From Planctomycetota bacterium (GTDB taxonomy: Bacteria; Planctomycetota; PUPC01; DSUN01): DNA of 64,000 nt. Below, one piece after another: positions 12,916 to 46,765 of this stretch. Position 1 is the stretch's first letter. Every line of letters begins with the position of its first letter. The position numbers and the translations under genes are program-made. The notes beneath the pieces were generated by a model that had not been told where the DNA came from, did not search any database, and saw nothing but the letters and a program-made list of their open reading frames with translations. The stretch covers positions 8,579 to 72,578 of the forward strand of contig DAOOIT010000002.1 in the NCBI GenBank assembly GCA_035384565.1, read 5' to 3'.

Positions 12916-13719
12916 TCATGATCCGCCGCCCGGAGGCAGTGCCTGGGCATGAGCGCCCGGATGCCTCCGGCAGACGTAGATCACCTCGTCCTCGTCCAGA
13001 GCATGGCGGGCAGCATCCAGGTGGCGAACGTAATCTTCGACTGCGACGGCGAAGCCCGCGTCCTCCAGCCGGCTCCTGTAGTCGAGGCCATAGAGCCTGA
13101 CCTCGTCGGAGAAGCCGAAGTGCCTGGCCCGTTCCTCAGGGGAGAAACCGGGGTCCTCCAGAGTGTGCTCGCGCCGCCGGTCTACATCCACCTGAAGGAT
13201 GGCATAGCCTCCGGGACGGAGCACGCGGTACACCTCGCGAAGCGCGCGGCGGTCATCCTCCACCTGCTCCAGCACGTGGTTGGCGATGACGACGTCGAAC
13301 GTCTCGTCGCCGAAGCCGATGTGTGTGATGGACATGACGAGATCGGGCGCCTCGCACAGCTCGTGGATGAACGAGACCATCAGGTCGGCCGTCACGTACT
13401 CGATGGCCGGATGCCGGCGAATCTCGCGCGCGAGACACCGCTCGGGCGCGAAGTGGAGCACACGCAATCGGCTCCGGAAGAACGCCATCCGGTCCCTCAG
13501 GAACAGGTAGAGCAGGCGGTGCCGCCCGAGAGACAGGCAGGAGGGGCACCAGTCGTTCTCTCTGCCGCCGAAGGGCAGGAACTTCGAGAAGCGATGGCCG
13601 CAGATCGGGCACTCCACCCGGTTGCCGCAGCGGTACCACAGACCCAGGAGCATCCGCTGGCCGCTGCGGAGCCCTCGGCACACGCGTGGCCCCAGGAGCC
13701 GTTTGAGAAGCCTCTTCAT
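12916..13719 (-). CDS. Class I SAM-dependent methyltransferase
   Basis: Start MKRLLKRLLG; ...VLHFAPE... DVVIANHVLEQVEDDRRALREVYRVLRPGGYAIL (Methyltransf_11/23-like motifs). The upstream part of the 456-aa track ORF is Arg/Pro-rich junk. Confidence 0.75.
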   Translation of the reverse strand: MKRLLKRLLGPRVCRGLRSGQRMLLGLWYRCGNRVECPICGHRFSKFLPFGGRENDWCPSCLSLGRHRLLYLFLRDRMAFFRSRLRVLHFAPERCLAREIRRHPAIEYVTADLMVSFIHELCEAPDLVMSITHIGFGDETFDVVIANHVLEQVEDDRRALREVYRVLRPGGYAILQVDVDRRREHTLEDPGFSPEERARHFGFSDEVRLYGLDYRSRLEDAGFAVAVEDYVRHLDAARHALDEDEVIYVCRRHPGAHAQALPPGGGS

Positions 13720-13726
13720 GCGTCGG

Positions 13727-14608
13727 TCAGCCTTCCCCCGCGCTGGCGGGCGTGGCCCCAGAGGGCGTGAAGAAGACCTCGCTCGGCGCCTCGAAAGGGG
13801 CCGCGAAGCCAGGAGGCAGGACTCCGATGTACGGCTTGCCGCACCGCGGGGCGACGGCCTGGCGGTAACAGCGGATCGCCTGACGCTTGGCAGACAGCAC
13901 CGGCGCGATGTCCAGCTTCCAGGCATTCGCCAGGCCCGGCTCGGCGAGCCGGCGAAGGGGCAGTTTGTACCATCCCCAGACCAGGTACCAGTGCACCGCG
14001 CACGGAAAGCCGCTTCGGCGAACGGCTTGCGCCACAATCTCGCTGGCGGCCGCATGGTCGGCCCAGCAGTCCAGAGGATGGGGCGCGTAGACCTCCTGGG
14101 GGGCCGCCTGGCGCAGGACCTCGGCCACCGCGGACACCGCCGTGGCAAACCCCTCCTGCCCGTTGCGGGGCAAGCGGCCGTCGGGCAGTCCAAGCCAGTG
14201 CATGGCCTGGGGGCCGAGCCCCAGGCGCGCGCCCGCCTCGCAGGCCAGAAGACGGCGCGCCCGGGCGATCTCCTCGACAGGCGCACCGCAGCAGCGCTGG
14301 TGCGATGCCTCGCCGCTGGTCAGGAAGGCCACGCCCACGCGGGCGTCGGCCTGAGCCTTGAGGGCGAGAAGTCCTGCCGTGGCGAATACCTCGTCATCGG
14401 GGTGAGGGGCAATCACCAGGGCAGGACCCCCGGGGAGGGCCTCCGGCCTGGCGCGGCGGGCCAGAACCCATTGCAGAACGCGGCGCCTCGGCGCCCCCTG
14501 CCAGGCGCGAAGCTGCGCCACAACTGTGTCGCCCAGCGCGCGTTTGAGGAGGGACTTCACCCCACCCGCCTGCACAGCCGCCTTCGCGGTGAGAGGCAAC
14601 GGACGCAT
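13727..14608 (-). CDS. PIG-L/LmbE-family N-acetylglucosaminyl deacetylase
   Basis: LVIAPHPDDEVFATAGLL...H (the PIG-L zinc-binding HPDDE motif); start MRPLPLTAKAA (ATG 14606-14608), overlapping the stop of the upstream gene. Confidence 0.75.
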   Translation of the reverse strand: MRPLPLTAKAAVQAGGVKSLLKRALGDTVVAQLRAWQGAPRRRVLQWVLARRARPEALPGGPALVIAPHPDDEVFATAGLLALKAQADARVGVAFLTSGEASHQRCCGAPVEEIARARRLLACEAGARLGLGPQAMHWLGLPDGRLPRNGQEGFATAVSAVAEVLRQAAPQEVYAPHPLDCWADHAAASEIVAQAVRRSGFPCAVHWYLVWGWYKLPLRRLAEPGLANAWKLDIAPVLSAKRQAIRCYRQAVAPRCGKPYIGVLPPGFAAPFEAPSEVFFTPSGATPASAGEG

Positions 14609-15444
14609 CACTCGTACTTCCTGAGTCCGCTCAGTTCCAGAAGCACATGGCCGAGGAATCGCGGGCCGTCCAGAAAGTCCCGACGCCAGACCTTTCTGGG
14701 TTCGTGGACGAGGCGCCATAGCCACTCGAACCCGCAGCGGCCCACCCAGGCCGGCGCCCGCTTGACTCTGCCGCTCAGGAACCCGAAGGCCGCTCCGACC
14801 CCGACCGCGACGGGGACCCTCAAGCGTTTCTGGTGCTCGGCAATCCACCTCTCCTGCTTCGGCAGACCGAGCCCGACCCAGAGAACATCGGGCCGGGCCT
14901 CGTTGATCATCCTGACATGGGCTTCATCTTCCTCGGGCGAAACGGCCCCGAAGGGCGGGGAGAACGTGCCGGCCACCCCGTGGTTCGGGTACTCGCGCTC
15001 CAGACGCTGGCGCAGAAGGGAGAGGGTCTCCGGTCGGTCCCCATAGAAGAAGCTGCTGTAGCCGCGTTCGTTTGCGCGCTCGAGGAACGCCCGCATCAGG
15101 TCGGCCCCGGGAATGCGCTGGATGCCGCGGAATCCCTTCAGGCGAGCGACCCAGACGGGCGCAATCCCATCGGGGACCCAGAGATCCGCCGAGTTCAGCA
15201 CGGCCTTGAGGTCCGGGCTCTTGTGCGCTTCCCAGATGCCGTGGAACCCTGTGACCACGATCCGCCGGCACTGGTGTTCGCGCGCCTCGACCCAGCCGGC
15301 CATCTCCTGGATCACCTGGCGAGGGCTCGTCAGGTGCACCCGGGCCCCCAGGATCCTGACCGCCGGAGCGCGCGTTCCTGCGCCGCCGTCTGCGTTCGAG
15401 GCGCGGGCGTGGGTGTCAGGCGATGGGCAAGAGCCTGCGGGCAT
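14608..15444 (-). CDS. WecB/TagA/CpsF-family glycosyltransferase (GT26)
   Basis: ...VTGFHGIWEAHKSPDLKAVLNSADLWVPDGIAPVWVARL...VLWVGLGLPKQERWIAEH... matches the GT26 family (TagA/WecG); start uncertain between 15444 and 15483. Confidence 0.8.
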   Translation of the reverse strand: MPAGSCPSPDTHARASNADGGAGTRAPAVRILGARVHLTSPRQVIQEMAGWVEAREHQCRRIVVTGFHGIWEAHKSPDLKAVLNSADLWVPDGIAPVWVARLKGFRGIQRIPGADLMRAFLERANERGYSSFFYGDRPETLSLLRQRLEREYPNHGVAGTFSPPFGAVSPEEDEAHVRMINEARPDVLWVGLGLPKQERWIAEHQKRLRVPVAVGVGAAFGFLSGRVKRAPAWVGRCGFEWLWRLVHEPRKVWRRDFLDGPRFLGHVLLELSGLRKYE

Positions 15445-16285
15445 CCTGTCCCTCGGGATTCGAGGAGAGCGCGACGAAGTCATACCCGCTCTCCAACTGA
15501 GCGGAGTCGCGCAGCTCCCGCAGTTGGACGCGGAAGAGGTTCTTCTGCCTGATCTGGAGAAATCGGTATCCCAGGCGAGACATCAACCGCACCTCCCCGC
15601 GCTCGAAGAAGGGCTGGCTCTTGTACGATTCGAAGATGATGGCCGCGGGGCGGTTCGAATCGAGCAGGCCGAGCGCGCCCGCCAGCACCTCCTCCTCGTG
15701 CCCCTCCACATCGAGCTTGAGGAGCCGGAGCGGGGGCAGATGCAGCGCCTCGAGATACGCGCTGGCTTGCCGCACCTGCACCGGAGTCGGGTCCGCCTCG
15801 GGGCCGGGGCGGATGAAGGAGCCGCAGCCTCGGTTGCCACGCGGGATGAAGAGGTCCACCTCACCATCCTTGTCCGACAGCGCGAGCGCGTGCGTCTGGA
15901 CATGGCGGAAGCCATTCAGCTCGGCCGACCGCCGGATGCACTCCGCCAATTGCGGCTGCGGCTCGAAAATGTGCACCTGCCCGGTGGGGCCGACGAATGT
16001 CGCGGCATACATGCCCACTTCGCCATAGCCGCCGCCAACATCCAGGAAGCAGTCGCCAGGCCGCAGGAGGCGCCGGCAAATCCACGTGATCTTCCTGTCG
16101 TAATCGCCCCAGTAGTAGATGGCCCGGCCGCAGTAGTCGTTGGGGTGCACCAGCAGGCGCGGGCCGCCTCGCAGGCGCGTCAGCACCAGGTTCCCATCCT
16201 GGGTGAGCCGGCGAGGCAGGGCCATGTGGGCCAGGCGCACGCCGCCTCTGTAGAGAGGGTAGGCGCGGATGAGCGCCCTGACCAT
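15416..16285 (-). CDS. FkbM-family methyltransferase
   Basis: Start MVRALIRAYPLYRGG...; ...CFLDVGGGYGEVGMYAATFVGPTGQVHIFEPQPQ...LKLDVEGHEEEVLAGALGLL... (Methyltransf_21/FkbM). Confidence 0.7.
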   Translation of the reverse strand: MVRALIRAYPLYRGGVRLAHMALPRRLTQDGNLVLTRLRGGPRLLVHPNDYCGRAIYYWGDYDRKITWICRRLLRPGDCFLDVGGGYGEVGMYAATFVGPTGQVHIFEPQPQLAECIRRSAELNGFRHVQTHALALSDKDGEVDLFIPRGNRGCGSFIRPGPEADPTPVQVRQASAYLEALHLPPLRLLKLDVEGHEEEVLAGALGLLDSNRPAAIIFESYKSQPFFERGEVRLMSRLGYRFLQIRQKNLFRVQLRELRDSAQLESGYDFVALSSNPEGQDARRLLPIA

Positions 16286-16326
16286 CGCCCGAACCAGGGG
16301 ACGCACCAGCGGAACTCCCCCATCGC

Positions 16327-18072
16327 TCAGCGCGCTCTGCGCCCCAGGCGGCGCCGCGCGAACCTGGCGACCTTGACAGCCAGCGCCCCCAGGAAGAGCG
16401 CGGCCAACTCGACCCCCTTGCGCACGGCCCCGATGGGCCGGAACTTCAACCTCACTCGCCCCGCATCTCCGAGCGCCCGGAGCTGAGCAGCAGCCTCGTA
16501 GGCAAAGCAGATGGACCTTGATAGCGTCGGCATCGAGAAGCCGAAGAGGTGCCTGTAGACGGGGTAGGCCTCCGCCAGCCTGCGGTAGCTCCCGAAGCCC
16601 CACCAGGGGTGATAGAAGGGCAGCTTCTCCAGCCGCCAGTTTCCCTCGAAGGCGTCGCGCCCGCGGGCGGTGCGGCGGAGATCGCGGAAGTCGTCCTGGG
16701 ATATGCCCAGCTCGGAGAACAGAACCCTGTTGACGTACGCATTGTACAGCCGCTGGCCCAGCCTGAGGCGGAGGGGCACCCGCGCCCAGAAGTCGCACAT
16801 GGCGCTGTCCCACAGCGGGATGCGCCAGTCATAGCCCCAGAACTCGTAGGCGCGACAGAAATTGACGATGAACTTCGCCTGGCGTTCCTGCCACTCCCAG
16901 CACTCGAGGGCGCTGGCCGCCTCCTCGGGGGTCTCGGTCGGCAGGTCGCCAATGCAGCGAAGGACCCGTTCCGCCATCACCGCGTGGAGAGCGCCGCGGC
17001 GCCGAGGCCAGCGCCACAGGCCGTAGTGGTCGTGAAGCAGTATCCTCAGCAGGTCCTGCGCGCCAACGGTCGTTCTGTCCGCAAAGTCACGTGGGATGTG
17101 GCTGCCGGAGATCACGTCGCCCGTATGGCCAGGGACTATAACCGCGTCGTCCGGGATCTTGCCGGCTGCTTTCAGTGCCCAAATCGCTGGCCAGTCCTGC
17201 ACACTGGCCAGGGAACTGAGTCCGCCGCGGTAGCTGTGGTATGCCTTGGCCTCCTCGCTGAGCAGTTGCTGCCGCCATTGCGAGCAGCACGCTGGCACGA
17301 ACTCCCAGGCGTATCCCAGCTTGAGAGCCACGGCTTGGCTGACCCTCGACTCCCAGTTGTTGGGACGGCCATAGGAGAGGCACAGGACGTCGCTCCTGCC
17401 CAGGCGGCGAAGCATGGCCACGACGAGCCGGGAATCCTGGCCTCCGCTGAGCGGCACAACCAGGGGGCGGCCTGCCGTGGAGGCGAGAAGACGCTCGAAG
17501 ACGCCCACGAGCATCTCATCCATCGTGGCAAGGAGCGCCTCCTCATTTGCCTCCAGGTAGTCGCCATGTACGAACCGGTAGTACCGGTGCGTTCTCACCC
17601 GGGGCACACGCTCGCGCTTGTCGGCGATCAGGCATTCCCCAGCCTGCAACTGCTTCACCCTGGGGCAGAGGGTATCTTGCCCCGTGACATACCCCGTGAG
17701 GAGGAACTCCGCCAGGGCGTCCTGATCCGCCGCATCGTCGGCCACCTGCGATCGCACCCATTCGGCGTCGTCACTAACGAACAGCTTCCCATTGGATTCG
17801 GCGTAGAAGAGCGGCCGGCTGCGCAGCCGATCGACCGCCGCGAAGCACACGCGGTCGGTCTCCACAGCAAGAGCGAACGAGCCGTTCAACCCACGCAGCC
17901 AGCGGCAGACCGCCTGTGCCTCCGGGGCTTCCTCGCCGAGGATTCGCGATAGCGCGCCTGCGAGAGCGGTTCCTTCGAGCAGCGCGTTCGGGCTGAAGGC
18001 GAAGCCAGTAGCCGCCACATGGTTAGCCTGCGACGTACTCGGCGAGCAGGGCTGCGCCAAGTCACAGAGCAT
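16327..18072 (-). CDS. Asparagine synthetase B-like amidotransferase (PP-loop ATP pyrophosphatase)
   Basis: DRLRSRPLFYAESNGKLFVSDDAEW (AsnB glutaminase-domain motif) and PLSGGQDSRLVVAML (the SGGxDS PP-loop). N-terminus is M-L-C-D, so there is no Cys2. Confidence 0.8.
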   Translation of the reverse strand: MLCDLAQPCSPSTSQANHVAATGFAFSPNALLEGTALAGALSRILGEEAPEAQAVCRWLRGLNGSFALAVETDRVCFAAVDRLRSRPLFYAESNGKLFVSDDAEWVRSQVADDAADQDALAEFLLTGYVTGQDTLCPRVKQLQAGECLIADKRERVPRVRTHRYYRFVHGDYLEANEEALLATMDEMLVGVFERLLASTAGRPLVVPLSGGQDSRLVVAMLRRLGRSDVLCLSYGRPNNWESRVSQAVALKLGYAWEFVPACCSQWRQQLLSEEAKAYHSYRGGLSSLASVQDWPAIWALKAAGKIPDDAVIVPGHTGDVISGSHIPRDFADRTTVGAQDLLRILLHDHYGLWRWPRRRGALHAVMAERVLRCIGDLPTETPEEAASALECWEWQERQAKFIVNFCRAYEFWGYDWRIPLWDSAMCDFWARVPLRLRLGQRLYNAYVNRVLFSELGISQDDFRDLRRTARGRDAFEGNWRLEKLPFYHPWWGFGSYRRLAEAYPVYRHLFGFSMPTLSRSICFAYEAAAQLRALGDAGRVRLKFRPIGAVRKGVELAALFLGALAVKVARFARRRLGRRAR

Positions 18073-18166
18073 ATTGATGTCTGCCTGGATATGCGTGCCT
18101 CAGTTGCCAGAGAAGTCCTATCGCGCACTGCAAGCAGCGTGGTCTGGTGTTGGAAGGCCGCATGAG

Positions 18167-18775
18167 CTACCGAACCCCGGCCCTGGCCACCACGACAAGT
18201 GTCTTGCAGAACCACTGGCGCAGGTAGCCAGGCAACCTGCCGAGGCCCCAGTATCTGGTGGAGTCCGTTACGTAGTGCATCGCCACCTCCGTGAATCCCT
18301 CCCTCGAGAGAAGATGTCGCAGAGTCCCAGGGCAATACCAGCAGGTGTGCTCATGGTTGAGCGAGACCCTTCCGTACCTCAACACTTCCCAGACCAGTTT
18401 CGGGTAGAAGGCGTTCGGCGTGGTCAAGATCAGCGCTCCCCCAGGCACGAGATGGCGTTTCATGTTCCTCAGGAACAGACCCGGGTTTGACAGGTGCTCG
18501 ATCACCTCCCCCGCGACAATGCAGTCGAACTCCTCGCCAAGCGTCACCATCTCAGCATCGCCGTGGAGAATGCTGTACCCCTTGCGACACAAAGCCTGCA
18601 CACCACGCTCATCTTTGTCGAGGCCAATGACCCGCCGCGCGTGCTTGCGGACAATGTGATGAAGCCACGCGGGGTTTGCTTCCCTGTCGGCATCTCTGCC
18701 AATGCACCCCACATCAAGCACGTTCTTCCCTCTGATGGTCTCCGCAACGATGCTCTCTCTTGTCTCCCTGCCCAT
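18167..18775 (-). CDS. Class I SAM-dependent methyltransferase
   Basis: VLDVGCIGRDAD...DCIVAGEVIEHLSNPGLFLRNMKRHLVPGGALILTTPN (motif I/post-I/II); 202 aa. Confidence 0.8.
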   Translation of the reverse strand: MGRETRESIVAETIRGKNVLDVGCIGRDADREANPAWLHHIVRKHARRVIGLDKDERGVQALCRKGYSILHGDAEMVTLGEEFDCIVAGEVIEHLSNPGLFLRNMKRHLVPGGALILTTPNAFYPKLVWEVLRYGRVSLNHEHTCWYCPGTLRHLLSREGFTEVAMHYVTDSTRYWGLGRLPGYLRQWFCKTLVVVARAGVR

Positions 18776-18850
18776 GGGCCTTATGCTCCGCTTGTGGCCC
18801 GATGCGCTGAGGATAAGCGCCGCAACGCCAACCCTCAGATAGGAGGCATG

Positions 18851-20431
18851 TTACCTCGAAACTGCATAGACCGTGCCGTCGTCGAGCTCCGCGACCTCGT
18901 GCAACCTCACCCTCTGCCGAAGCTGCTCCACTGTGAAGAGGTGCCTCGCCCGCCCTCGCCTGAACCACACAAGATATGCCTTCTCCTCCTCCGGCCACGG
19001 GCCACTGAACGCGTGGGATTCACCCATCGCTTCGCGCGAGTTGTACATGCCCTTTGCAGGGCTCTCGCTTGCGGGCATCTTTGTCTGAATGTAGAGCGCG
19101 TAAGGCGCGTTGCTGTAGACTCTGCACTCGGGCTCCAGAGGATGGCTCCGTAGCCACTGGATGGTTCGGCTCTGCGTCCACGGCTTGCTGGTGTATCCCT
19201 CTGGCCCCTCTCGCCACAGAGCCAGGAGACGAGACCCACTCGCGACGACCGGGTATAGCAGCCATATTGCGGCGCCTACAGCCAGCAGGCGAGTTCGCAT
19301 CGGGCGAGCGGGGCGGAGATTCCGTATGTGTCGCTCAAACTCCCCTGCGGCACGGAGGAGGAGTACTGTCAAGGGGACATACACAGGCGATACCAACCTG
19401 CTGTTAGGCGGGTCGTAGGCTGTGGTGGCCGAGGTCACAGCTAGGAATAGGACGTAGACCCCGATGAACACGAGAAGGGGAGACATAGACGCCCCGGAAC
19501 CTCCTTGGCCGGTGCCGACGTGTTCGGCTACCAGGGTTGGCACCGCAATGCAACACAGGGCAAGCTGGGGCGACAGATGCACAAGCCTACAGAACTCAAC
19601 GATGGGGACATACCACGACACAATCACAGCGGCAACTAGCATGCAGGTCTGATGCAGCCCGTATACGGAGCTTGCACGTGGCCCCAAGAGTGTGCCCGTC
19701 AGTGCATAGTTCCTGATCGCCCATGCACCCAGCGGAGCTGCCGCTATAGGCAGCAGGAGGCAGACATGCGCGATCCGCGTGCGCCATTCGCGCCCTACAG
19801 CGAAGAGGATGACCGCCACGCCGGTGGCGATGATCGTCACGCCGGCATACCTGGTCGCAGCAGCGAAGCCGGCAGCCATGGCGGCTGCCATCAGGAAGCG
19901 GACCCGCGGCTCTCGCAGATACGACTCCACGGCCAGCAGGAAACACACGGACAAGGCGATGAAGAGGGGCTCGGACCATGCCATCACTGACACAGAGAGC
20001 AGCGGTTTCGAGAACAGCACGAGGGCCTGCACAAGGACCACGAGAACCGGCGAGGCTCTGAGGTGCCGGGCGGCCAACTCCCCTGAGAGGTACACGATCA
20101 GACCGAAGAGCACGGCATTGACCACGTGAGCCGAGCCCAGGGGGTCAGCCCCAGTACTCCACTGGACCGTTGCCAGGAGCATTGGATAGAGTGGGGGCTG
20201 CATGACCAGAGGGGTGCCATCCCAAATGGTGGCGCCCGCTCCCGCGGCCATGTGCCTTGCTGCTGCAATATAGCCCACGGAGTCGGGCGAGATTCCGGCC
20301 CCGTGATGGCCGATGCAGAACAGGACCATGCATGTCCCGATGAGACCCAGCAATCCGCCGGCTATTCTACATCTCACCGGGTGTGTCATTGCAGACCTCG
20401 CTGTCGGGGTCCGAGAGCCATCCACCACCAC
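18851..20431 (-). CDS. GT-C membrane glycosyltransferase, ArnT/PMT-like (lipid-linked-sugar-dependent)
   Basis: 526 aa, about 11 TM helices; first loop SPDSVGYIAAARHMAAGAG resembles ArnT's D-E-x-R-Y-A-E-I-S-R-E-M loop; soluble C-terminal domain. Start possibly at MTHPV (about 20389). Confidence 0.6.
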   Translation of the reverse strand: MVVDGSRTPTARSAMTHPVRCRIAGGLLGLIGTCMVLFCIGHHGAGISPDSVGYIAAARHMAAGAGATIWDGTPLVMQPPLYPMLLATVQWSTGADPLGSAHVVNAVLFGLIVYLSGELAARHLRASPVLVVLVQALVLFSKPLLSVSVMAWSEPLFIALSVCFLLAVESYLREPRVRFLMAAAMAAGFAAATRYAGVTIIATGVAVILFAVGREWRTRIAHVCLLLPIAAAPLGAWAIRNYALTGTLLGPRASSVYGLHQTCMLVAAVIVSWYVPIVEFCRLVHLSPQLALCCIAVPTLVAEHVGTGQGGSGASMSPLLVFIGVYVLFLAVTSATTAYDPPNSRLVSPVYVPLTVLLLRAAGEFERHIRNLRPARPMRTRLLAVGAAIWLLYPVVASGSRLLALWREGPEGYTSKPWTQSRTIQWLRSHPLEPECRVYSNAPYALYIQTKMPASESPAKGMYNSREAMGESHAFSGPWPEEEKAYLVWFRRGRARHLFTVEQLRQRVRLHEVAELDDGTVYAVSR

Positions 20432-20479
20432 GAAGCGCGATCCAGGGCACCATGTCCGCTTGAGTGTTCTGCTGGCCTC

Positions 20480-21742: not shown

Positions 21743-22977
21743 GCGCCGCGTCCCTTGTGCTCGGCCACCACGCGGTCGAGCACTGCCGCCAGCGTCTTGG
21801 CCTGTTCCTTGCGGCTGTACTTCATGATCTCGTCCGGATTGCGGCTCATGCGGATGTCGCCCGTCTGCTTCCACTCCCGATACCACCGCAACAGCACCGT
21901 CTTCAGCTCCTCTACGGAGTCGCACGAGACCCCAATCCCCGTCGCCTCCAGCACACGGTCCAGGCACTCGGGATGTTTGGGGTAGGACAATACAGGACGC
22001 CCGGCAGCCATATACTCGAAGACCTTGCTCGTCAGCACCCCCGGTGTGTCTGGCATGCCGAGCACGAGCAGCACCGTCGCCTCACGCTGTGCGCGGAGAA
22101 TCTCGGTCAGGGACAGCTTCGGCAGGATGCGGGGCGGCTTGCGGAATGAATTGAGTCCGTGCTCCCGCAGGAACTCAGCGGAAAGCGAGTAGAGCAGGAT
22201 CTCCACTTCTTCCGCTGGTACAGCACCCTCGGTGATCAACTCATTCATCGCCCTGGTCACTGGCAGCACGTCCCGAGAACCCCACGCTGAACCCGTGTAG
22301 GCGATTGTGAACGTGCCCACCCTCGGCCGGGGAGGCTCTGCACACAGCCAGTCCGGGTCAAAGCCGTTCGGGATCACCGTGACAGGAACGGCGGCTCTCT
22401 GCCGCAGCAGCGCGGCCCAGGGCTCCGATACCGCGATCTGGTGCGAGGCGGTTCGACAGATGCGCCTCTCGCGCCAGGCCACCAGCCTCCTGAGGGCTTG
22501 GTTCTGGACGATCAGATCCACCGGATCCCTGTGGTCAGCCACCCAGGGCACACCGTGCTCTCTCGCTGCGATCGTGGCCGCGACGAACGGGCCCCAATGC
22601 GGTCCAGTGGCCCAGATCACCTCAGGGGCGCACGGCTGGCGCCCCAGTTCTGCCAGCACCTGCCGCGCCCATCGCGAGCTGCGGGATCCAGGAAGACACA
22701 GAATGTCGATCACCCCGAGCCACCTTCGTGCCAGCCTGCCCATCGAGGCGGCGCGTTCCGCGGGGAGGTGCTTGCGGATGATCTGCGATTCGGGAATGCC
22801 GACGTTGGCTCGGACCTCCTCATCAGACATCGGGCCCAGGCAGTCTGCGGGCAGCGACGTCAGCACGGTGACGTGCCAGCCGCAGGCCGGGAGGTACTTG
22901 GCCATCGCCGCCGCGCGGCGGGACGACTGCCGGTTCATCGGCGGGAAGTCGGGGGCGATGAGGAGGACGCTTCTCAT
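21739..22977 (-). CDS. Glycosyltransferase family 4 (tandem paralog B)
   Basis: Start MRSVLLIAPDFPPMN (ATG 22975-22977, ATGA overlap); KVFEYMAAGRPVLSYPKHPE; C-terminal ...MKYSRKEQAKTLAAVLD paralogous to the previous gene. Confidence 0.8.
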   Translation of the reverse strand: MRSVLLIAPDFPPMNRQSSRRAAAMAKYLPACGWHVTVLTSLPADCLGPMSDEEVRANVGIPESQIIRKHLPAERAASMGRLARRWLGVIDILCLPGSRSSRWARQVLAELGRQPCAPEVIWATGPHWGPFVAATIAAREHGVPWVADHRDPVDLIVQNQALRRLVAWRERRICRTASHQIAVSEPWAALLRQRAAVPVTVIPNGFDPDWLCAEPPRPRVGTFTIAYTGSAWGSRDVLPVTRAMNELITEGAVPAEEVEILLYSLSAEFLREHGLNSFRKPPRILPKLSLTEILRAQREATVLLVLGMPDTPGVLTSKVFEYMAAGRPVLSYPKHPECLDRVLEATGIGVSCDSVEELKTVLLRWYREWKQTGDIRMSRNPDEIMKYSRKEQAKTLAAVLDRVVAEHKGRGA

Positions 22978-24188
22978 GGTCCTGCCCCAGGCCGAGCGCC
23001 GGCTCCCGGGCCGCGGGTACCGGCGCCGCCCGAGGCACCGAATGGGACGGCGGGCCGGTTCAGGCATTCCTCGTACGCGGCGTGCAATTGCCGGCCCACG
23101 CTCGCGAGGCTGAAGCGCTGGGCCGCGTACTCCGAGAGCCGACTCGGCGGGAAGTCGCTCAGATGGTCGAGCATGTAGTCAATTCCTCGGCACAGCGCGG
23201 CCTCGTCGTTCGGAGGCACGAGCATGCCGACCTCGGGGGTGATGAACTCCTCGGGCCCGCCGCAGCGGGTCGCCAGCACGGGCGTGCCGGTGGCCAGGGC
23301 CTCAATGGCGACGATGGAGAAGGTCTCGCACAGGCTGCTGACGACCACGAGGTCGGCTCCCCGCATCCTTTCGGCGACCTCCCCGTGCGGTCGGGCGCCC
23401 AGGAAGCTCACCTTGTCCAGAAGACCGAGATCGGCGGCCGTCTTCACGTATCCCTCCCGAGCCGGGCCGTCGCCCACAATGTCTAGCCGCCAATCCGCGC
23501 GTGTGCCCCGGAGGGCCGCCAACGAGCGGAGCAGAACGGGTATCCCTTTGAGGTGCCGTCCGTCGTAGAAGCCGACCGAAAGGAGGCGCCTCGCCGGCTC
23601 AGCAGGCGGCGCCACCTTGGGACGGAAGGTCGCCGTGTCCACAGGATTCGGCACGACGCGAAAGCGCGCACGGATGCCGTATGCTTCGATAGCGTGCTGC
23701 AAGGCGAGGCTTATCGGCAACACCAGCCGCGCTCTCGCGAAGGCGAACCTGGCCTTGCGAACCTGGCGTCTCGACAGGGTCTTCATCAGGAAGGAGCTGA
23801 AGTGCTCCGAGATGACCACGGGGAGGCCATAGCGCTTGCCAAGGAGCACCGCCGCGAACCCGGCATCGAACACGTGCGCGTGAAGAAGGTCCGGCCTGAA
23901 CCCGCCGGCCCAGAGCTGTCGGAACGCTCGGAACGTGCTGTACGTTTCCCAGAGAAACGACCAGCCTGGAACCGCGGCACAGCGGTGCCGGACGCGATAG
24001 GTCGGGATGCCCGCGGTGAGGGCTTCATCCGGCTCGCGTTCCACGAGGTAGCGCCGGCGCAGGTGCGGGCAGCGGCCGGCCATGTGAAGCACCACGACCT
24101 CGTTGTGCAGGGCAGCGGCCTTGGCGTGCGCCCGAACGAAGCCGCCAGCTCCGGGAGGATACCAGGGGGTGAGCAGCAGAACCCTCAG
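22974..24188 (-). CDS. Glycosyltransferase family 4 (no canonical start codon at the conserved N-terminus)
   Basis: GT4 core LRVLLLTPWYPPGAGGF...ISEHFSSF...SLCETFSIVAIEALATGTPVLATRCGGPEEF. In-frame codons at the N-terminal beta-strand are CTG-AGG-GTT, with the CTG overlapping the TGA of the upstream GT2 (CTGA). The nearest upstream ATG would overlap the GT2 by more than 300 nt. Confidence 0.65.
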   Translation of the reverse strand: MRVLLLTPWYPPGAGGFVRAHAKAAALHNEVVVLHMAGRCPHLRRRYLVEREPDEALTAGIPTYRVRHRCAAVPGWSFLWETYSTFRAFRQLWAGGFRPDLLHAHVFDAGFAAVLLGKRYGLPVVISEHFSSFLMKTLSRRQVRKARFAFARARLVLPISLALQHAIEAYGIRARFRVVPNPVDTATFRPKVAPPAEPARRLLSVGFYDGRHLKGIPVLLRSLAALRGTRADWRLDIVGDGPAREGYVKTAADLGLLDKVSFLGARPHGEVAERMRGADLVVVSSLCETFSIVAIEALATGTPVLATRCGGPEEFITPEVGMLVPPNDEAALCRGIDYMLDHLSDFPPSRLSEYAAQRFSLASVGRQLHAAYEECLNRPAVPFGASGGAGTRGPGAGARPGAGP

Positions 24189-25300
24189 GCGCCATCCTCC
24201 GCGGGGTCTTCTGGGGTCGGGGTGTGGCGCGCTGTCCCGCTTCTTCCCTGATGGGCAGGCAGGAAGTGCGCGCGCTTGATGCCCAGAAGGCGCCCGACCT
24301 GCTTTACGGCGGCCAGGGTTGCCATTCGGGGCGGCCAGAGACGGAGGGCTCGCCAGAACAGCCGGCGGCTTGCCGCGCTGTTGCGTCGAACGAGAGCGAT
24401 GGACTGCTGGAGGAGCGACGCTGATGCTGCTCTCCTGAGCCAGGCGAAAGTGGAGCTGGACTCGCGCGCTCTGGCCTGGAGGAGCAGTTCGGCAAGGAGC
24501 GAGAGGACGAGAGGCAGTAGGTCGGCTTTGATCGGGCCATGACCACACAGAAGCCATCTTAGCCCCGCGGCCTCCGGCCCGCCAAGCTCGCGCCCGAGGT
24601 AGCGAGACATCAGGCGCCGGGAGACGCTGCAACCAAGCTCTCTGCCAGCAAGCCCGCGGGTGGCCGCGCTCGAACGGGGATGGGATCGGTGTCTCATCAG
24701 GGGGGCAGAGAGGTTGCCGAAGATCGTATGGTCACGGAGTCTCGCCCACAGGTCATAGTCCTGCGCAACCCAGAACCTCTCATCGTATCCGCCGAAGGTC
24801 AGAACCAGCTCGCGCCGGAAGATGGCCAGGGGGTGAGAGAGGCAGGCGGTCCAGAGAAGCATCAGCCTGATCTGTTCATCTCTGCACGGAGGCGAGTGAC
24901 GCTCAAGAATCCCTCCCTTCTCGTCAGTAGTCCAGAAAGCGGCGGACGATGCACCGATCTGCTGGCTGCGTTCCATGTAGCTCACCTGCCTGGCCAGGCG
25001 GGTGGGGACGTAGACATCATCCGCGTCCGCACGTGCCACAAGGGGGGCGCGCGCCGCCCGAAGGCCCCGGTTCAGCGACACAGGCAGCGTGAGGCAACGG
25101 TCATTGCGTACGACCACAACCCTGGGATCCGAGTAGCTGCGCAGAATCGCCCCTGTGCCGTCCGTGCTGCCATCGTCCACGATGAGGAACTCGAAATCCC
25201 GGAACGTCTGGGCGAGGATGCTATCCACCGCCTGGCGAAGGAAGGCCTCGCCGTTGTGAACGGACATCAGCACTGTCACCGCTGGCGCCGTCATGAACAC
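24185..25300 (-). CDS. Glycosyltransferase family 2
   Basis: VTVLMSVHNGEAFLRQAVDSILAQTFRDFEFLIVDDGSTDGT... is a canonical GT2 N-terminus; 371 aa. Confidence 0.85.
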   Translation of the reverse strand: MFMTAPAVTVLMSVHNGEAFLRQAVDSILAQTFRDFEFLIVDDGSTDGTGAILRSYSDPRVVVVRNDRCLTLPVSLNRGLRAARAPLVARADADDVYVPTRLARQVSYMERSQQIGASSAAFWTTDEKGGILERHSPPCRDEQIRLMLLWTACLSHPLAIFRRELVLTFGGYDERFWVAQDYDLWARLRDHTIFGNLSAPLMRHRSHPRSSAATRGLAGRELGCSVSRRLMSRYLGRELGGPEAAGLRWLLCGHGPIKADLLPLVLSLLAELLLQARARESSSTFAWLRRAASASLLQQSIALVRRNSAASRRLFWRALRLWPPRMATLAAVKQVGRLLGIKRAHFLPAHQGRSGTARHTPTPEDPAEDGA

Positions 25301-25313
25301 TTCACCATCGGTG

Positions 25314-25952
25314 TCACTTGACCGCTATGATCCAGGTGACAATGGGCCACCGTGGATCGTTTCTTGTGGCCAGTCGGTGGAAAGGGTGCCACCTGGCGTG
25401 CGGGACCCCTTCGTACCTGAGACCATCACCTTCGTCGCCCACTATCGGCCACACTTCTCTGTTCCCCCAGCTACCGACCTCGATAACCCTTGTCCAAGCT
25501 CGGTGGAGCAGAGACAAGCCTTGGGGTGTGAATCGCCAGAAGTCCTCTGGGGCGCCATGGATTGGGTGGAGCAGACAGGTGGTGTGGACAGCTATGCCGC
25601 CCCTTCTCAGAACTCGGTGGCATTCATCTATGGCCTGTTGTGGACTTCCCTCGACATGCTCCAGCACTTGGTCCGATAGCACGTGGTCAAAGCTGGCATC
25701 TGGGTAGTCAAGGTGGAGAATGCTGTGCTCTGGGTAGTTGGCCTCGACAACTGCCGTTGGCTTCAGGCTGAGGAGTCCGCAGAGATTGGCCGAATGACTG
25801 ATAGCGAGCACGCATCCTGTTCGGTGCGGCAAGAGCGTTCCGACAGCACGGAGTCGTTCATACATGAAGTAGCGGGTAATGCGAGGCCCACGACGCAGGC
25901 CCCTCATTGACAGGCGCCACACAAGTTCGCGCACCTTCTGTAAGATACGCAT
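25314..25952 (-). CDS. Class I SAM-dependent methyltransferase (small)
   Basis: Start MRILQKVRELV; ...FDHVLSDQVLEHVEGSPQQAIDECHRVLRRGGIAV (Methyltransf_11-like). Confidence 0.6.
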   Translation of the reverse strand: MRILQKVRELVWRLSMRGLRRGPRITRYFMYERLRAVGTLLPHRTGCVLAISHSANLCGLLSLKPTAVVEANYPEHSILHLDYPDASFDHVLSDQVLEHVEGSPQQAIDECHRVLRRGGIAVHTTCLLHPIHGAPEDFWRFTPQGLSLLHRAWTRVIEVGSWGNREVWPIVGDEGDGLRYEGVPHARWHPFHRLATRNDPRWPIVTWIIAVK

Positions 25953-25954
25953 CG

Positions 25955-26803
25955 CTACCTTGGTGTTTCGGGCAGAAGGGGGCGCGTGGCCACCACGACC
26001 TGGGTGAGCCAATACTTTCCTGTAGGGTTGAACTTGTAGAGGAGGTTCTTTCCAAACCAGATATTGGCAAGACTCATCAGCCAGCGGAAGACGGGTCTTC
26101 GGAGGAACAACCTGGGGTACCAGTAGTACAGATCGAGCGCGAACAACGATGTGCAGAAGGCATGCTGTGTGACGCAGAGGGACTCGCCGACAAGACGGCT
26201 GAACTCGCCGGGAAAGAACTCTCGCACGTGTTCCCTGGCCTGTACGAATTCGGTAAGGCGGACCGGGGTGGATAGGACGAGACGTCCGTTCGGCCGCATG
26301 ACCCGCCGCATGTCGGCCAGCAATCCTCGGGCGTCCGCGACGTGTTCGATCACGTCCGCGCAGACCACAACATCCTGTGTTCCGTCTCCGACGAGGGCCA
26401 GAGCATCCAGAACTTTGACTGATGCGCCCTTCCTACGCAGCATCTCGGCAGCCAGTGCCCTGCCTGTGAGGTCCGGCTCGACGCACGATGTCTGACCATT
26501 CGGGTTGCGGCGATACAGCATGTAAGTGAGCGCGCCATCACCAGAGCCGACGTCCAGAACGGACATGCCGTCCCGGATACGTACAGCATCCAGCACTGCG
26601 CGGTACCGAGCGGCCGTGAGGAGGTCATGGTTCCTGGGGTCGCGGCTGAACGCGAGCCAATGATAGGCTCCCCGCCTGACGTACTTGCTGAACGGAGGCA
26701 CACTTGGCTGTGTCTCACCGCTCACGTGCTCACCATCAGTTGCCTCGCGCATCGCAGTGTCCCTGCCGGATCGGCAGTCGCTAGTGGGATACGTGTGCTG
26801 CAT
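25955..26803 (-). CDS. Class I SAM-dependent methyltransferase
   Basis: VLDVGSGDGALTYML...DVVVCADVIEHVADARGLLADMRRVMRPNGRLVLSTP; 282 aa. Confidence 0.75.
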   Translation of the reverse strand: MQHTYPTSDCRSGRDTAMREATDGEHVSGETQPSVPPFSKYVRRGAYHWLAFSRDPRNHDLLTAARYRAVLDAVRIRDGMSVLDVGSGDGALTYMLYRRNPNGQTSCVEPDLTGRALAAEMLRRKGASVKVLDALALVGDGTQDVVVCADVIEHVADARGLLADMRRVMRPNGRLVLSTPVRLTEFVQAREHVREFFPGEFSRLVGESLCVTQHAFCTSLFALDLYYWYPRLFLRRPVFRWLMSLANIWFGKNLLYKFNPTGKYWLTQVVVATRPLLPETPR

Positions 26804-26892
26804 GCAGGCTGGCCCGCCAACGACCTCCCCATGTATCTGACCCGGAGTCAGCTCGGCGCGCCGGCCGCATCAGGCGAAGACATTCTCTAAGC

Positions 26893-28194
26893 TCACGGCT
26901 GAGCAATGTCGCCTGCCAGATGGGTGTCCACATCCCGGTACGACCAGTCAGCGAGCTGGAAGACGACGCCCTTTGCCTTGAGAAGTGGTCGTCTCACCCG
27001 AGGATTCGATTGGTCAACAGTGAAGCTGAGGCAACCATCTGCAAGGTCGGCTCGATTCCCGATGGTGTCGCCAACCCAGAACGACACCCTGTAGCGGTCG
27101 GGAACAAGCTGAAGCTGGGGAATGCATGCGCGGACCACACGCTGGCGAGCCGGGTGGAGAGCACTCGACCTTGAGTCGACGTCCCAAAGGTGATAGACTG
27201 GAGTTCCGTCGCTGTTGACGATGAGGATGCCGTGGCTATAGTGCTGAGAAGGCGACAAGTAGCGAACAGCAAACTCAAAGACGATGGACTCGCCAAGGCT
27301 GAAGTTGACCTTAGGGTTGCCCTCCCTATCACGGATGGAACCCTCAAGAATCCTGGCAGATCCATCACCGCTCTCCTCCGTCCTGGTCCGCAGACACACA
27401 CTCGCTCCGCTGCTTTCGCCTAGAGTCCGCAGGTAGAGCCTGACAGCCGCGCCTGGATCGAGATCCGCCACAAGGCTGCCCGCGTCCAGCACCAAGGCTC
27501 GACGACATAAGTGTGCAATCGCGGCCATGTTGTGGCTCACGAAGAGCACCGTTCGGCCGCCGTGCGCGACCTCGCTCATCTTCCCCAGGCACTTCTGTTG
27601 GAACCCCGCATCCCCCACGGCGAGCACCTCGTCCACGAGCAGGATCTCGGGCTCGAGGTGGGCGGCGACGGCGAAGGCGAGACGGACGTACATGCCCGAG
27701 GAATACCGCTTGACGGGGGTGTCTATGAACTTGTCCAGCTCGGCGAAGGCGACAATCTCGTCGAACTTGCGGGCGATCTCGGCCCTGCTCATGCCGAGGA
27801 TGGCGCCGTTGAGGTAGATGTTCTCGCGGCCCGTGAGCTCGGGATGGAAGCCGGTGCCGACCTCCAGGAGGCTGGCGACACGGCCCCGTATGCGGGCGCG
27901 GCCCTCGGTCGGCTCGGTGATGCGGGAGAGGATCTTGAGCAGGGTGCTCTTGCCGGCGCCGTTGCGGCCAATGATGCCAAGCACCTCGCCTTGCTGGACC
28001 TCGAAGGAGACGTCTTTGAGGGCCCAGATGGTGTCGTCGCCGCCGCTCGGGGCGCGGCCGAGGTTCCGAAGCCTTCTGAACGGTGCGGCGAGGGCGTCGG
28101 TGATGGCCTCGCGGAAGGTGTGGTAGCTCTCGCGCGCGCCGATGCGGTAGCTCTTGGAGAGGCCCTCGACTCGGATGACGGGCTCAGGCATCCG
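26893..28194 (-). CDS. wzt: Wzt/TagH-type polysaccharide ABC exporter ATPase with C-terminal carbohydrate-binding (Wzt_C-like) domain
   Basis: Start [15 protein letters not shown]; Walker [10 protein letters not shown], signature [14 protein letters not shown], Walker [14 protein letters not shown]-loop SHNM; about 180-aa C-terminal beta-rich extension (...[31 protein letters not shown]...VSFWVGD...). Confidence 0.85.
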
Positions 28195-46504: not shown

Positions 46505-46765
46505 CGGGTGTGGGCCGGAATTGTAGGCGGCTGCGGGAGTTCCGAAGGAGCGAAATAGGATAGCCCAGGGCAACGCCCTGGGAACAAGACCGCCCCGCGG
46601 CAGCCCTGACAGGGCGGAATCGAGAGCTTCTATCTCGCCCCTTCAGGGCTGGACTCGTGGATCCCGCTGAACCCAGGGCGTTGCCCTGGGCTATCCCATG
46701 CGAGCCCTTCAGGCTCCAGAGACAATCACCCTGCCTGCAATTCCGGCCCGCACCCGTGCAAGCCG
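46505..46765. repeat. Nested inverted-repeat element in the divergent intergenic region
   Basis: Inner arms ggatagcccagggcaacgccctggg (about 46557-46581) and cccagggcgttgccctgggctatcc (about 46669-46693) are perfect reverse complements about 90 bp apart, and each arm is itself a hairpin (cccagggc-aac-gccctggg). Outer arms ggtgcaagccgggtgtgggccggaattg (about 46505-46532) and caattccggcccgcacccgtgcaagcc (about 46737-46763) give 18 of 19 matches in the core. Confidence 0.5.

Follow-up and report, generated by a model that had tools for sequence, protein, structure and literature searches.

A glycan gene cluster of a Planctomycetota bacterium with an ABC exporter carrying a Wzt carbohydrate-binding domain and adjoining methyltransferase genes

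The window, the whole stretch of DNA analysed, comprised 64 kb (64,000 nucleotides). The cluster was found to exceed the interval 12916-28194 to which a sequence-only reading had been confined: it starts with a NusG paralog preceded by a promoter-like site (31622-31594) and extends to an O-antigen-ligase-family gene at 824-2209. The genes listed in that reading were all judged real, and every gene described below lies on the minus strand. The region is best explained as a single long minus-strand operon-like array of ∼30 kb. By Pfam, a WecA-like initiator, about eleven glycosyltransferases and the O-antigen-ligase-family gene share the strand of wzm and wzt. A putative Sigma-70-like promoter (TTGACA-17-TATAGT, 31594..31622, minus strand), called from an 11/12 consensus match only, lies ∼280 nt upstream of the array's first gene.

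A UpxY/RfaH-like NusG/KOW paralog (30741..31313) was matched by Pfam NusG (30.2 bits) and KOW and by the NCBIfam UpxY subfamily model (66.7 bits, below the cut-off of 100) and is a candidate operon-specific antiterminator. The initiating enzyme is a 506-residue WecA/MraY-family polyprenyl-phosphate HexNAc-1-phosphate transferase (29212..30732; PF00953, E 3e-41; TIGR02380 wecA, 133 bits, below cut-off) with a C-terminal extension of ∼170 residues belonging to no assigned family. The ABC-2 permease gene wzm (28374..29225; PF01061, ABC2_membrane, E 1.6e-23) precedes wzt, followed by two methyltransferase genes, MT1 (25955..26803) and MT2 (25314..25952), a GT2 glycosyltransferase (24185..25300; PF00535, E 2.7e-29) and a GT4 glycosyltransferase (22974..24188; PF00534, E 3.2e-30). 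The start codon of the GT4 gene is uncertain, the sole candidate near the conserved N terminus being CTG.

Two GT4-like glycosyltransferases (21739..22977 and 20480..21742), each matched by PF13579 and PF13439, are followed by a 512-residue polytopic membrane protein (18851..20389), possibly a GT-C type glycosyltransferase, which had no Pfam match and a weak match to the NCBIfam LA_3751/LA_3752 putative glycosyltransferase model (33.9 bits). The class I methyltransferase MT3 (18167..18775; Methyltransf_23, E 8.2e-16) precedes an asparagine-synthase-like amidotransferase (16327..18072; PF00733, 29.6 bits; TIGR03108 and TIGR01536 below cut-off), a candidate for amidation of a sugar acid. Next are the FkbM-family methyltransferase MT4 (15416..16285; PF05050, Methyltransf_21, E 4.6e-14; TIGR01444, 94.6 bits), a WecG/TagA/CpsF (GT26) glycosyltransferase (14608..15483; PF03808, E 2e-60) that likely performs the second step on the lipid-linked primer, a PIG-L family de-N-acetylase (13727..14608; PF02585, E 2.8e-21) and, 8 nt downstream of the latter, MT5 (12916..13719; Methyltransf_11, E 6.2e-15, with a weak N-terminal zinc-ribbon match).

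The remainder of the array encodes a GT4 (11727..12911; PF00534) and a GT2 glycosyltransferase (10804..11730; PF00535), a YdjC-family carbohydrate deacetylase (10053..10814; PF04794, E 1.9e-42), a further GT4 glycosyltransferase (8818..10056; PF00534 and PF13692), an NAD-dependent sugar-nucleotide epimerase/dehydratase (7644..8642; PF16363 and PF01370, E about 1e-50) and a membrane protein with no Pfam or NCBIfam match (6427..7383). A GT2 polyprenyl-phosphate sugar synthase of Dol-P-Man synthase or ArnC-like type (5571..6425; PF00535; PDB 5mlz, E 6.9e-11; ArnC 8vxh, E 8.4e-6) is followed by a GT-C type (PMT_2) membrane glycosyltransferase (3488..5485; PF13231, 34.3 bits), a candidate for periplasmic decoration, a GT4 glycosyltransferase (2220..3419; PF00534, E 3e-31) and a Wzy_C-family protein (824..2209; PF04932, 54.4 bits), an O-antigen ligase of WaaL type or a PglL-type O-oligosaccharyltransferase, for which no solved relative was found by sequence. 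In Pfam scans no gene matched a Wzx-type flippase family, and no kinase or Kdo-transferase family (GT99/GT137) was detected in the cluster. An obvious coiled-coil ruler protein of WbdD/WbbB type is absent from the cluster.

The wzt gene had been placed at 26893-28194; the gene was upheld and its start was moved to the ATG at 28191, giving 26893-28191 on the minus strand. The 432-residue product matches a Planctomycetota MAG protein in NCBI at 100% identity. The nucleotide-binding domain (residues 1-245, 27457..28191) contains ABC_tran (PF00005) at residues 58-189 (Pfam, E 1.7e-23), with Walker A GRNGAGKS at 75-82, signature YSSGM at 163-167, Walker B LLVDE at 184-188 and an SH H-loop, and was matched to A. 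aeolicus Wzt (8dku/7k2t). The extra C-terminal domain, predicted at ∼180 residues, was found to span 187 (about 246-432; 26893..27456 including the stop codon), and residues 271-396 matched Wzt_C (PF14524) with 47.4 bits (cut-off 30.4). Structure prediction, the check proposed at the outset, gave a confident all-beta AF2 model (pLDDT 89.8), a beta-sandwich whose nearest folds are solved Wzt binding domains. The top 17 Foldseek matches in the PDB were to Wzt carbohydrate-binding domains only (6o14, 8dky, 2r5o, 5hno, 5hnp), the 3-O-methyl-mannose complex 8dky among them, and profile searches against the PDB returned 8dky (E 5.7e-18) and 5hno (E 8e-4). Pfam, profile-to-PDB and fold searches thus agree in supporting a genuine Wzt carbohydrate-binding domain, of the cap-reading type that had been proposed. 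In every studied system such a domain reads a cap at the non-reducing end, and it is both essential and cap-specific (PMC9445017, PMC11231755). Ligand specificity cannot be read from the sequence of this domain because the methyl-pocket residues of A. aeolicus are not kept (N313, A348, H350 and W362 correspond to W336, W372, G374 and L383).

An iterative HMM scan of all open reading frames in the window returned exactly five methyltransferases, all above threshold in Pfam, in place of the six first claimed; the text of the sequence-only reading gives six while listing five. All are co-directional with the glycosyltransferases around them, with short gaps. Only generic class I or FkbM models were matched, a specific NCBIfam equivalog being reached by none of the five. 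Methyltransferase calls at related Wzt loci were validated by Pfam. At least one methyltransferase was located within 10 kb downstream of wzt in 21 of 24 related loci and three to five in 6 of 24, and the gene immediately downstream of wzt was a methyltransferase in 20/52. A related glycan cluster contains seven in 16.7 kb. The density of methyltransferases, which had been called unusual, is not so, because related Wzt loci commonly carry them and denser clusters exist; methyltransferases are the rule beside such a Wzt.

MT1 and MT2 directly follow wzt, as first read. MT1 has a full class I SAM methyltransferase domain in Pfam and belongs to a small distinct family; the NCBI start at 26752 gives 265 residues. 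MT2 (212 residues) is Methyltransf_11-like and was matched by the second half of the Pfam profile only. Its SAM loop reads L-A/S-I-S-x-S, and MT2 and its family have L-S-I-S-x-S instead of the canonical glycine-rich loop, so activity of MT2 is less certain. The order wzm-wzt-MT1-MT2-GT2-GT4 is intact in the nearest relative, L001 (86, 74, 70, 75, 63 and 51% identity, respectively), in which the flanking genes differ on both sides; the GT2 enzyme is also 49% identical to that of L003. Homologues of MT1 (70% identical, at the same position) and MT2 (75% identical) were located in L001 and L002. In the closest relative, wzt travels with MT1 and MT2 and not with the deacetylase, MT5 or MT4. In L003 and L004, whose binding domains are 44-50% identical to that analysed here, the methyltransferase genes after wzt belong to unrelated families (FkbM or another Methyltransf_11).

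Relatives of MT1 were always found within glycan clusters and those of MT2 are fused to GT61 and GT92/GT2 domains, which argues that both are glycan enzymes. The MT1 family is not tied to Wzt, since members with 40-49% identity were also located in glycan clusters that use another exporter or lack a Wzt within 8 kb. Neither MT1 nor MT2 matched WbdD by sequence, nor MT1 by fold; the structural neighbours of MT1 form a flat list of unrelated N- and O-methyltransferases, mostly small-molecule N-methyltransferases.

Gene content, domain assignments and the binding-domain fold are demonstrated, and the following pathway is proposed from them. A glycan would be built lipid-linked in the cytoplasm and leave by an ABC-transporter-dependent route. 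The WecA-like enzyme would prime polyprenyl phosphate, the TagA/WecG-type enzyme extend the primer and the GT2 and GT4 enzymes polymerise the chain, which would be finished by modification of its non-reducing end. The finished end would be recognised by the C-terminal domain of Wzt, and only then would the polymer be passed through the inner membrane by Wzm and Wzt, after which the Wzy_C-family enzyme would ligate it to an acceptor. Cap-dependent export is predicted by homology, and it is gene order only that points to a methyl cap made by MT1 or MT2. The cap would most likely be one or more methyl groups on the terminal sugar, added by MT1 and/or MT2, because their genes directly follow wzt and travel with it as a 'transport-termination-elongation' block. 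MT1 is the candidate chain-terminating methyltransferase and MT2 a candidate second terminator or partner of MT1. Methylation is the only recognisable capping chemistry, since no kinase or Kdo-transferase family occurs in the cluster. For MT3, MT4 and MT5, both deacetylases and the amidotransferase, the most likely role is to modify sugar precursors or residues inside the chain. This reading as a whole, a lipid-linked surface glycan with cap-gated export and a cap that is most likely methyl, was assigned a probability of about 0.6. A heavily methylated glycan whose terminal methylation would gate export had been proposed from the first; the genuine binding domain and the co-inheritance of MT1 and MT2 after wzt support the gating in part, and the argument from density falls away.

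It is possible, though doubtful, that export is cap-gated but by something other than a simple methyl group from MT1 or MT2, which would then methylate internal residues. Such a cap could be a distinct terminal sugar from one of the many glycosyltransferases, or an amino sugar de-N-acetylated and then N-methylated or amidated (PIG-L or YdjC with MT5, MT4 or the amidotransferase). The pocket residues unlike those of the methyl-binding A. aeolicus domain and the MT1 relatives in clusters lacking Wzt are consistent with it, as is the PIG-L gene, which overlaps the wecG stop and lies close to MT5. Pairs of FkbM and polysaccharide-deacetylase genes recur in L003, directly after wzt, and in L004. 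Deacetylation followed by N-methylation would parallel the NodB/NodS logic of Nod-factor synthesis, in which the non-reducing terminal GlcNAc is deacetylated and then N-methylated. Kdo caps are a precedent for a cap other than methyl (PMC11231755), but no Kdo-transferase or kinase family was detected here by Pfam, and in L001 it is MT1 and MT2 that accompany wzt.

A product other than LPS O antigen, synthesised in the same way and still exported by a Wzt of this type, was considered unlikely. A PglL-type Wzy_C enzyme would transfer the product to protein, or a WecA/TagA-type linkage unit would anchor it to the wall. The Wzy_C family covers WaaL ligases and PglL O-oligosaccharyltransferases alike, and the gene at 824-2209 matched nothing more specific than PF04932. 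WecA and a GT26 TagA/WecG enzyme, both present in the cluster by Pfam, form the linkage-unit pair of teichoic acids and ECA. Wzm/Wzt and methyl caps are described for S-layer glycans too in PMC2943079. Related proteins are annotated 'lipopolysaccharide transport system ATP-binding protein', but this naming is automatic. The two kinds of product are not discriminated, because the 64-kb window contains no lipid A-core, S-layer or acceptor genes. That the five methyltransferases, or some of them, act on small molecules, lipids or proteins, the binding domain recruiting substrate generally without gating, agrees with the generic models and with the fold neighbours of MT1 but is highly improbable given the position of all five among glycosyltransferases, the glycan context of MT1 and MT2 relatives, the frequency of methyltransferases at related Wzt loci and the essential, cap-specific role of studied binding domains (PMC9445017, PMC11231755).

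The cluster plan, an ABC exporter with a sugar-cap-reading domain and adjoining methyltransferase genes, is already well known, and the locus is a fresh example. Because the block is conserved and mirrors the arrangements in E. coli O8/O9a, in P. aeruginosa CPA and in the P. syringae 'TET' operon, export gated by a methyl cap is the best guess. Aquifex aeolicus WzmWzt (7k2t, 8dku, 6o14, 8dky) is the best solved relative, whether by sequence (E 7e-69, the alignment reaching the binding domain), by binding-domain profile or by fold (rank 1-4), and has the same architecture of nucleotide-binding domain, hinge and binding domain. Its cap is 3-O-methyl mannose or rhamnose (PMC9445017). Identity between the binding domains is only about 18-19%, the four pocket residues being W, W, G and L here, and a rhamnan or mannan is clearly simpler than the glycan here, since the cluster encodes an amidotransferase and two deacetylases besides about eleven glycosyltransferases.

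E. coli O8/O9a and K. pneumoniae O5/O3 (wzm-wzt-wbdD-wbdA) share the order wzm, wzt, methyltransferase, glycosyltransferase and a Wzt with a binding domain, 2r5o being among the top fold matches here; their cap is required for export (PMC3482155, PMC11231755). Unlike WbdD, MT1 (265-282 residues) and MT2 lack a kinase domain and are too short for its coiled-coil ruler and polymerase-recruitment region. In P. aeruginosa CPA, two small, partly redundant, coiled-coil-free methyltransferases (PA5457, PA5459) are present, and the double mutant lacks CPA (PMC3560663); in P. syringae the wzm-wzt-methyltransferase-GT 'TET' operon moves as a variable module (PMC7820976), resembling the conserved block here. 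Both combine a Wzt of this type with small stand-alone methyltransferases that have no coiled coil, the likeness drawn here being one of arrangement. The Pseudomonas polymers are simple rhamnans, whereas three further methyltransferases and a lipid-phosphate-sugar/GT-C branch are present here.

Mycobacterial MGLP and MMP, offered at first as the reference, are cytoplasmic polymers that are not known to be exported, and the sole likeness is that several SAM methyltransferases adjoin glycosyltransferases; the cluster here has a polyprenyl-phosphate initiator, a cap-reading ABC exporter and a ligase-family gene. The fitting reference is instead P. aeruginosa CPA, for which a methyl modification is suspected only (PMC3560663), together with the methyl-capped O antigens of E. 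coli O8, K. pneumoniae O5 and Aquifex aeolicus (PMC9445017, PMC11231755).

The window has a GC content of ∼67%. Because DNA of such high GC is rich in spurious ORFs, genes were picked first on codon-position GC and next on family matches. From ∼31.3 kb down to 0.8 kb all genes judged real lie on the minus strand, separated by short gaps or overlapping. To the right of 32.2 kb both strand and function change, to sugar uptake, ThuA, GFO/IDH oxidoreductases and glycoside hydrolases. The interval delimited by the sequence-only reading is therefore the core part of a longer cluster, ∼30 kb in size. Third-position GC was 0.68-0.85 in most cluster genes (3488-28242) and 0.86-0.95 in the majority of right-flank genes (32266-63822), and local GC dropped to 0.60-0.63 at 4-8, 18-20 and 24-28 kb. 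This pattern fits the atypical composition frequent in surface-polysaccharide clusters. A scan of the window against Rfam gave no match inside the cluster; outside it, an Acido-Lenti-1 small RNA was matched at 46538-46582 on the minus strand (38.7 bits, gathering threshold 37) and a tRNA at 51283-51365 on the plus strand, also at gathering level.

A near-consensus sigma-70-like promoter (TTGACA-17-TATAGT, 31594-31622, minus strand) is located ∼280 nt upstream of the first gene of the array, which encodes a NusG/KOW paralog (30741-31313). The best score of the paralog was to the UpxY subfamily (66.7 bits; cut-off 100), and its score to RfaH was weak. Paralog and promoter together suggest putative operon-specific antitermination of a ∼30 kb transcript in a planctomycete. 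The second gene encodes a WecA/MraY-family initiating transferase of 506 residues (29212-30732, PF00953), of which the last ∼170 lie C-terminal to the catalytic domain and match no family. The gene overlaps the start of wzm by 14 nt. At 28-30 kb GC skew spikes where the end of the wecA-like gene and the start of wzm code for proline-rich stretches.

The ABC-2 permease gene wzm (28374-29225, PF01061) and the ATPase gene wzt (26893-28191, PF00005 and PF14524) lie on the same strand with 183 nt between them. The ATPase motifs of Wzt are intact (GRNGAGKS 75-82, YSSGM 163-167, LLVDE 184-188 and the SH H-loop 219-220), and their positions were invariant or ≥ 90% conserved across 50 homologues, with the exception of V186 and the second leucine of LLVDE. 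The same protein (100% identity) is found at NCBI under the name [quoted passage not shown]. Its best solved relative is the full-length Wzt of Aquifex aeolicus (E 7e-69), and the alignment runs past the ATPase into the C-terminal carbohydrate-binding domain (CBD). An extra C-terminal domain of ∼180 residues had been proposed from the sequence; the extension past the ATPase is 187 residues long and matches Wzt_C (PF14524) with 47.4 bits, above the Pfam threshold of 30.4.

The CBD was aligned utilizing the C-terminal 187 residues of Wzt and those of 34 homologues, and was modelled with AlphaFold (AF2). The sequence-only reading had named the fold of this domain as a point on which it could fail. 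The model, with a mean pLDDT of 89.8, is all-beta after a short hinge helix, and a Foldseek search of the PDB returned exclusively Wzt carbohydrate-binding domains at ranks 1-17, followed by generic beta-sandwiches; on this point the sequence-only reading stands. The top 17 comprise the A. aeolicus domain in apo and 3-O-methyl-mannose-bound form, E. coli O9a (2r5o) and Raoultella terrigena (5hno/5hnp). The alignment profile likewise matched 8dky (E 5.7e-18) and 5hno (E 8e-4). Solved CBDs dimerise by exchange of the C-terminal strand, and the monomer model contains a C-terminal strand (model residues 170-175) with the near-invariant W416.

In the A. aeolicus CBD the methyl cap is held by I299/L300, N313, A348, H350 and W362 (PMC9445017). 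By profile alignment I299/L300 are retained as I322/L323, and the remaining positions are changed (N313 to W336, A348 to W372, H350 to G374 and W362 to L383). The Aquifex methyl pocket is replaced by H-L-W-D-x-D (334-339) and F-W-V-G-D (371-375), and the motifs H-L-W-D-x-D and L-W-x-G-D are common to the close Wzt relatives. Since CBD specificities differ, this non-conservation is uninformative; the attempt to read cap specificity from the pocket residues was dropped, with no inference drawn either way. The domain is thus of the right kind, but its sequence does not reveal the ligand.

Directly 3′ of wzt lie two methyltransferase genes, the class I MT1 (25955-26803) and MT2 (25314-25952), followed by a GT2 glycosyltransferase (24185-25300) and a GT4-type gene (22974-24188). 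The closest Wzt relative, 74% identical, occurs on two metagenome contigs, both of which retain wzm, wzt, MT1, MT2, GT2 and GT4 in unchanged order, with identities of 86, 74, 70, 75, 63 and 51%, respectively. The two contigs do not share the same upstream gene, and their genes after GT4 differ from those of the window. Accordingly, wzm-wzt-MT1-MT2-GT2-GT4 is a co-inherited block, and the placement of MT1 and MT2 beside wzt, noted in the sequence-only reading, is conserved together with wzt itself. In two further Wzt relatives (61% and 59%) the gene next to wzt on its downstream side is again a methyltransferase, though from a different family (FkbM or a further Methyltransf_11). For the GT4 gene that closes the block, no canonical start was found near the conserved N-terminus (24150-24260), where only CTG is available, and the nearest in-frame upstream ATG/GTG/TTG gives an overlap of hundreds of nucleotides with the preceding GT2. 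An unusual start, an assembly indel and translational coupling are all possible.

The MT1 family is small and sharply bounded, with ∼35 full-length relatives among 5.8 billion proteins. It is characterized by an invariant N-terminal F-x-K-Y-x3-G-x-Y-H-W motif, a C-terminal extension of ∼70 residues and a canonical SAM loop with invariant D-x-G-x-G-D. The MT1 model is a single compact alpha/beta domain of class I fold (pLDDT 93). Its fold neighbours form a flat list of unrelated N- and O-methyltransferases and so carry no information on substrate. Three relatives (40-49% identity) were all located among glycosyltransferases; one adjoins a fused type-I ABC exporter, and around the other two no Wzt lies within 8 kb. 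MT1 is thus an enzyme of glycan clusters without a fixed tie to Wzt. A scan of GTDB contigs with the MT1-family alignment was unproductive, as the back-translated motifs were generic to SAM binding and nearly all of the 80 loci held unrelated methyltransferases.

The MT2 family is larger (76 cluster representatives at E ≤ 1e-30), and the Methyltransf_11 profile of Pfam matches MT2 over its second half only. Where a glycine-rich SAM loop is expected, the family has L-S-I-S-x-S, with both serines near-invariant in 25 sequences; the canonical E/DxGxGxG loop is present in MT1 and was not found in the MT2 family. Relatives are fused to GT61, GT92/GT2, FkbM and TPR domains. These fusions tie the family to glycan synthesis, SAM binding and catalysis being putative.

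Downstream of the block are two further GT4-type genes (21739-22977 and 20480-21742), a polytopic membrane protein of 512 residues with no family match (18851-20389), the methyltransferase MT3 (18167-18775), an asparagine-synthase-like amidotransferase (16327-18072), the FkbM-family methyltransferase MT4 (15416-16285), a WecG/TagA GT26 enzyme (14608-15483), a PIG-L deacetylase (13727-14608) and the methyltransferase MT5 (12916-13719). The amidotransferase-like protein starts MLCD…, the usual start being MCG…, and its glutaminase domain match is weak (GATase_7, 18.8 bits); the protein may lack the catalytic cysteine at its N-terminus. The PIG-L gene shares 1 nt with the stop of wecG, and 8 nt separate it from MT5. 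The array continues with GT4 (11727-12911), GT2 (10804-11730), a YdjC deacetylase (10053-10814), GT4 (8818-10056), an epimerase/dehydratase (7644-8642), a second polytopic membrane protein without family match (6427-7383), a Dol-P-Man-synthase/ArnC-like GT2 (5571-6425; PDB 5mlz, E 6.9e-11), a PMT_2 GT-C enzyme (3488-5485), GT4 (2220-3419) and a Wzy_C (O-antigen-ligase family) protein (824-2209), for which no solved relative was found. The ArnC-like GT2, the GT-C enzyme and the two polytopic membrane proteins suggest an added periplasmic decoration branch utilizing lipid-phosphate-sugar donors.

The sequence-only reading had counted six methyltransferases at unusual density. The five that it listed all match Pfam methyltransferase families, and iterative HMM scanning of all ORFs in the window gave exactly five, so the sixth was discarded. 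NCBIfam naming of the five returned generic or far-below-threshold matches only, apart from the FkbM domain. Density was assessed in 80 metagenomic loci with Wzt relatives; wzt was located in each, and methyltransferases were called with HMMs grown from Pfam-labelled seeds. In a Pfam check of 72 calls the leading families were Methyltransf_11 (39), FkbM (20) and Methyltransf_24 (11), and 24 of the 25 families among the matches listed were methyltransferase families. The gene immediately 3′ of wzt was a methyltransferase in 20 of 52 loci. Where at least 7 kb of downstream sequence was available (24 loci), at least one methyltransferase was found within 10 kb of wzt in 21 and at least three in 6, with a maximum of five. 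The window has three within 10 kb and five within 15.3 kb, which places it in the upper quarter of related loci and not as an outlier. Methyltransferases beside a CBD-type Wzt are the norm. Locus L085 (1613-16424), a metagenomic glycan cluster holding a 49%-identical MT1 relative, is denser in methyltransferases than the window cluster, with seven such genes, drawn from four Pfam types, within 16.7 kb, adjoining a fused type-I ABC exporter. In two related loci, L003 (10804-12365) and L004 (18050-19572), a Polysacc_deac_1 gene comes after an FkbM gene. The recurring deacetylase-methyltransferase pairs resemble the deacetylate-then-N-methylate logic of NodB/NodS.

The best-supported reading of the cluster is a standard cap-checked ABC pathway. 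The WecA-like enzyme would initiate on polyprenyl phosphate and the GT26 enzyme would extend the primer. Polymerisation would proceed in the cytoplasm until the chain terminus is modified, the modified end would be recognised by the Wzt CBD, and export would follow. The glycan would then be ligated by the Wzy_C-family protein, which is read as a ligase, with lipid A-core and protein both candidate acceptors. No Wzx flippase of a Polysacc_synt/MurJ-type family was found in the scanned cluster genes, which include the two membrane proteins without family match. From gene order, the foremost candidate for the modification is a methyl cap added by MT1 and/or MT2, because methylation is the sole capping chemistry visible in the cluster, because the MT1 and MT2 genes travel with wzt, and because the P. 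aeruginosa CPA system provides a close precedent, with a pair of small methyltransferases that lack a coiled coil and are needed jointly (PMC3560663). The scanned cluster genes gave no match to a kinase or Kdo-transferase family.

The main rival holds that the cap is something other than a methyl group from MT1/MT2, for example a de-N-acetylated, N-methylated amino sugar, and that MT1 and MT2 act on internal residues. The tight coupling of the PIG-L and MT5 genes and the FkbM-deacetylase pairs in related loci speak for it; the co-travel of MT1 and MT2 with wzt favours the methyl cap. A bolder proposal, to which we give low odds, is that the Trp-surfaced CBD sub-clade reads an undescribed cap made by a new type of terminator, the MT1/MT2 pair without a coiled-coil ruler. 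Such a cap may be a terminal amino sugar that is N-methylated or carries several methyl groups, and the terminator may combine a canonical methyltransferase (MT1) with a partner bearing a serine-rich SAM loop (MT2). If true, this would be a new solution to chain termination and length control in Planctomycetota. A WbdD-type terminator, as in E. coli O8/O9a and K. pneumoniae O3/O5, was rejected for want of homology: no PDB sequence match to MT1 or MT2 at E ≤ 1 was a WbdD chain, nor was any of the top 50 fold matches of the MT1 model, and neither MT1 (265-282 residues) nor MT2 (212 residues) has the coiled-coil ruler and C-terminal membrane/polymerase-recruitment region of WbdD. The suggested likeness to mycobacterial MGLP/MMP was ruled out by pathway architecture, as these are cytoplasmic polymers without lipid-linked export machinery, whereas the cluster encodes a polyprenyl-phosphate initiator, Wzm/Wzt and a ligase-family protein.

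To our knowledge, the surface glycans of Planctomycetota are almost unstudied. At least in its own lineage, the cluster predicts a complex, methyl-decorated, lipid-linked polymer that leaves by the cap-checked ABC route also used for the O antigens of enterobacteria. The conserved block is a candidate for a compact, portable transport-termination-elongation module, and its terminator candidates without a coiled-coil ruler bear on how chain length is set outside model systems. Of some interest are the phylum, the lack of a ruler in these candidates, the unusual SAM loop in the MT2 sequence and a predicted tryptophan-rich CBD surface that appears distinctive of the sub-clade. CBD-type Wzt proteins are highly abundant, with at least 8000 candidates at E ≤ 1e-10 and PF14524 in nearly all of the best 120, and their association with neighbouring methyltransferases is very common in metagenomes; beyond the points above, the cluster adds an example and no new principle. 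With its Wzm-Wzt pair, intact ATPase motifs, Wzt_C fold and initiator, it fits a CBD-type ABC-transporter-dependent pathway, and the layout of its block matches wzm-wzt-wbdD-wbdA of E. coli O8/O9a and the "TET" operon of P. syringae (PMC3482155, PMC7820976).
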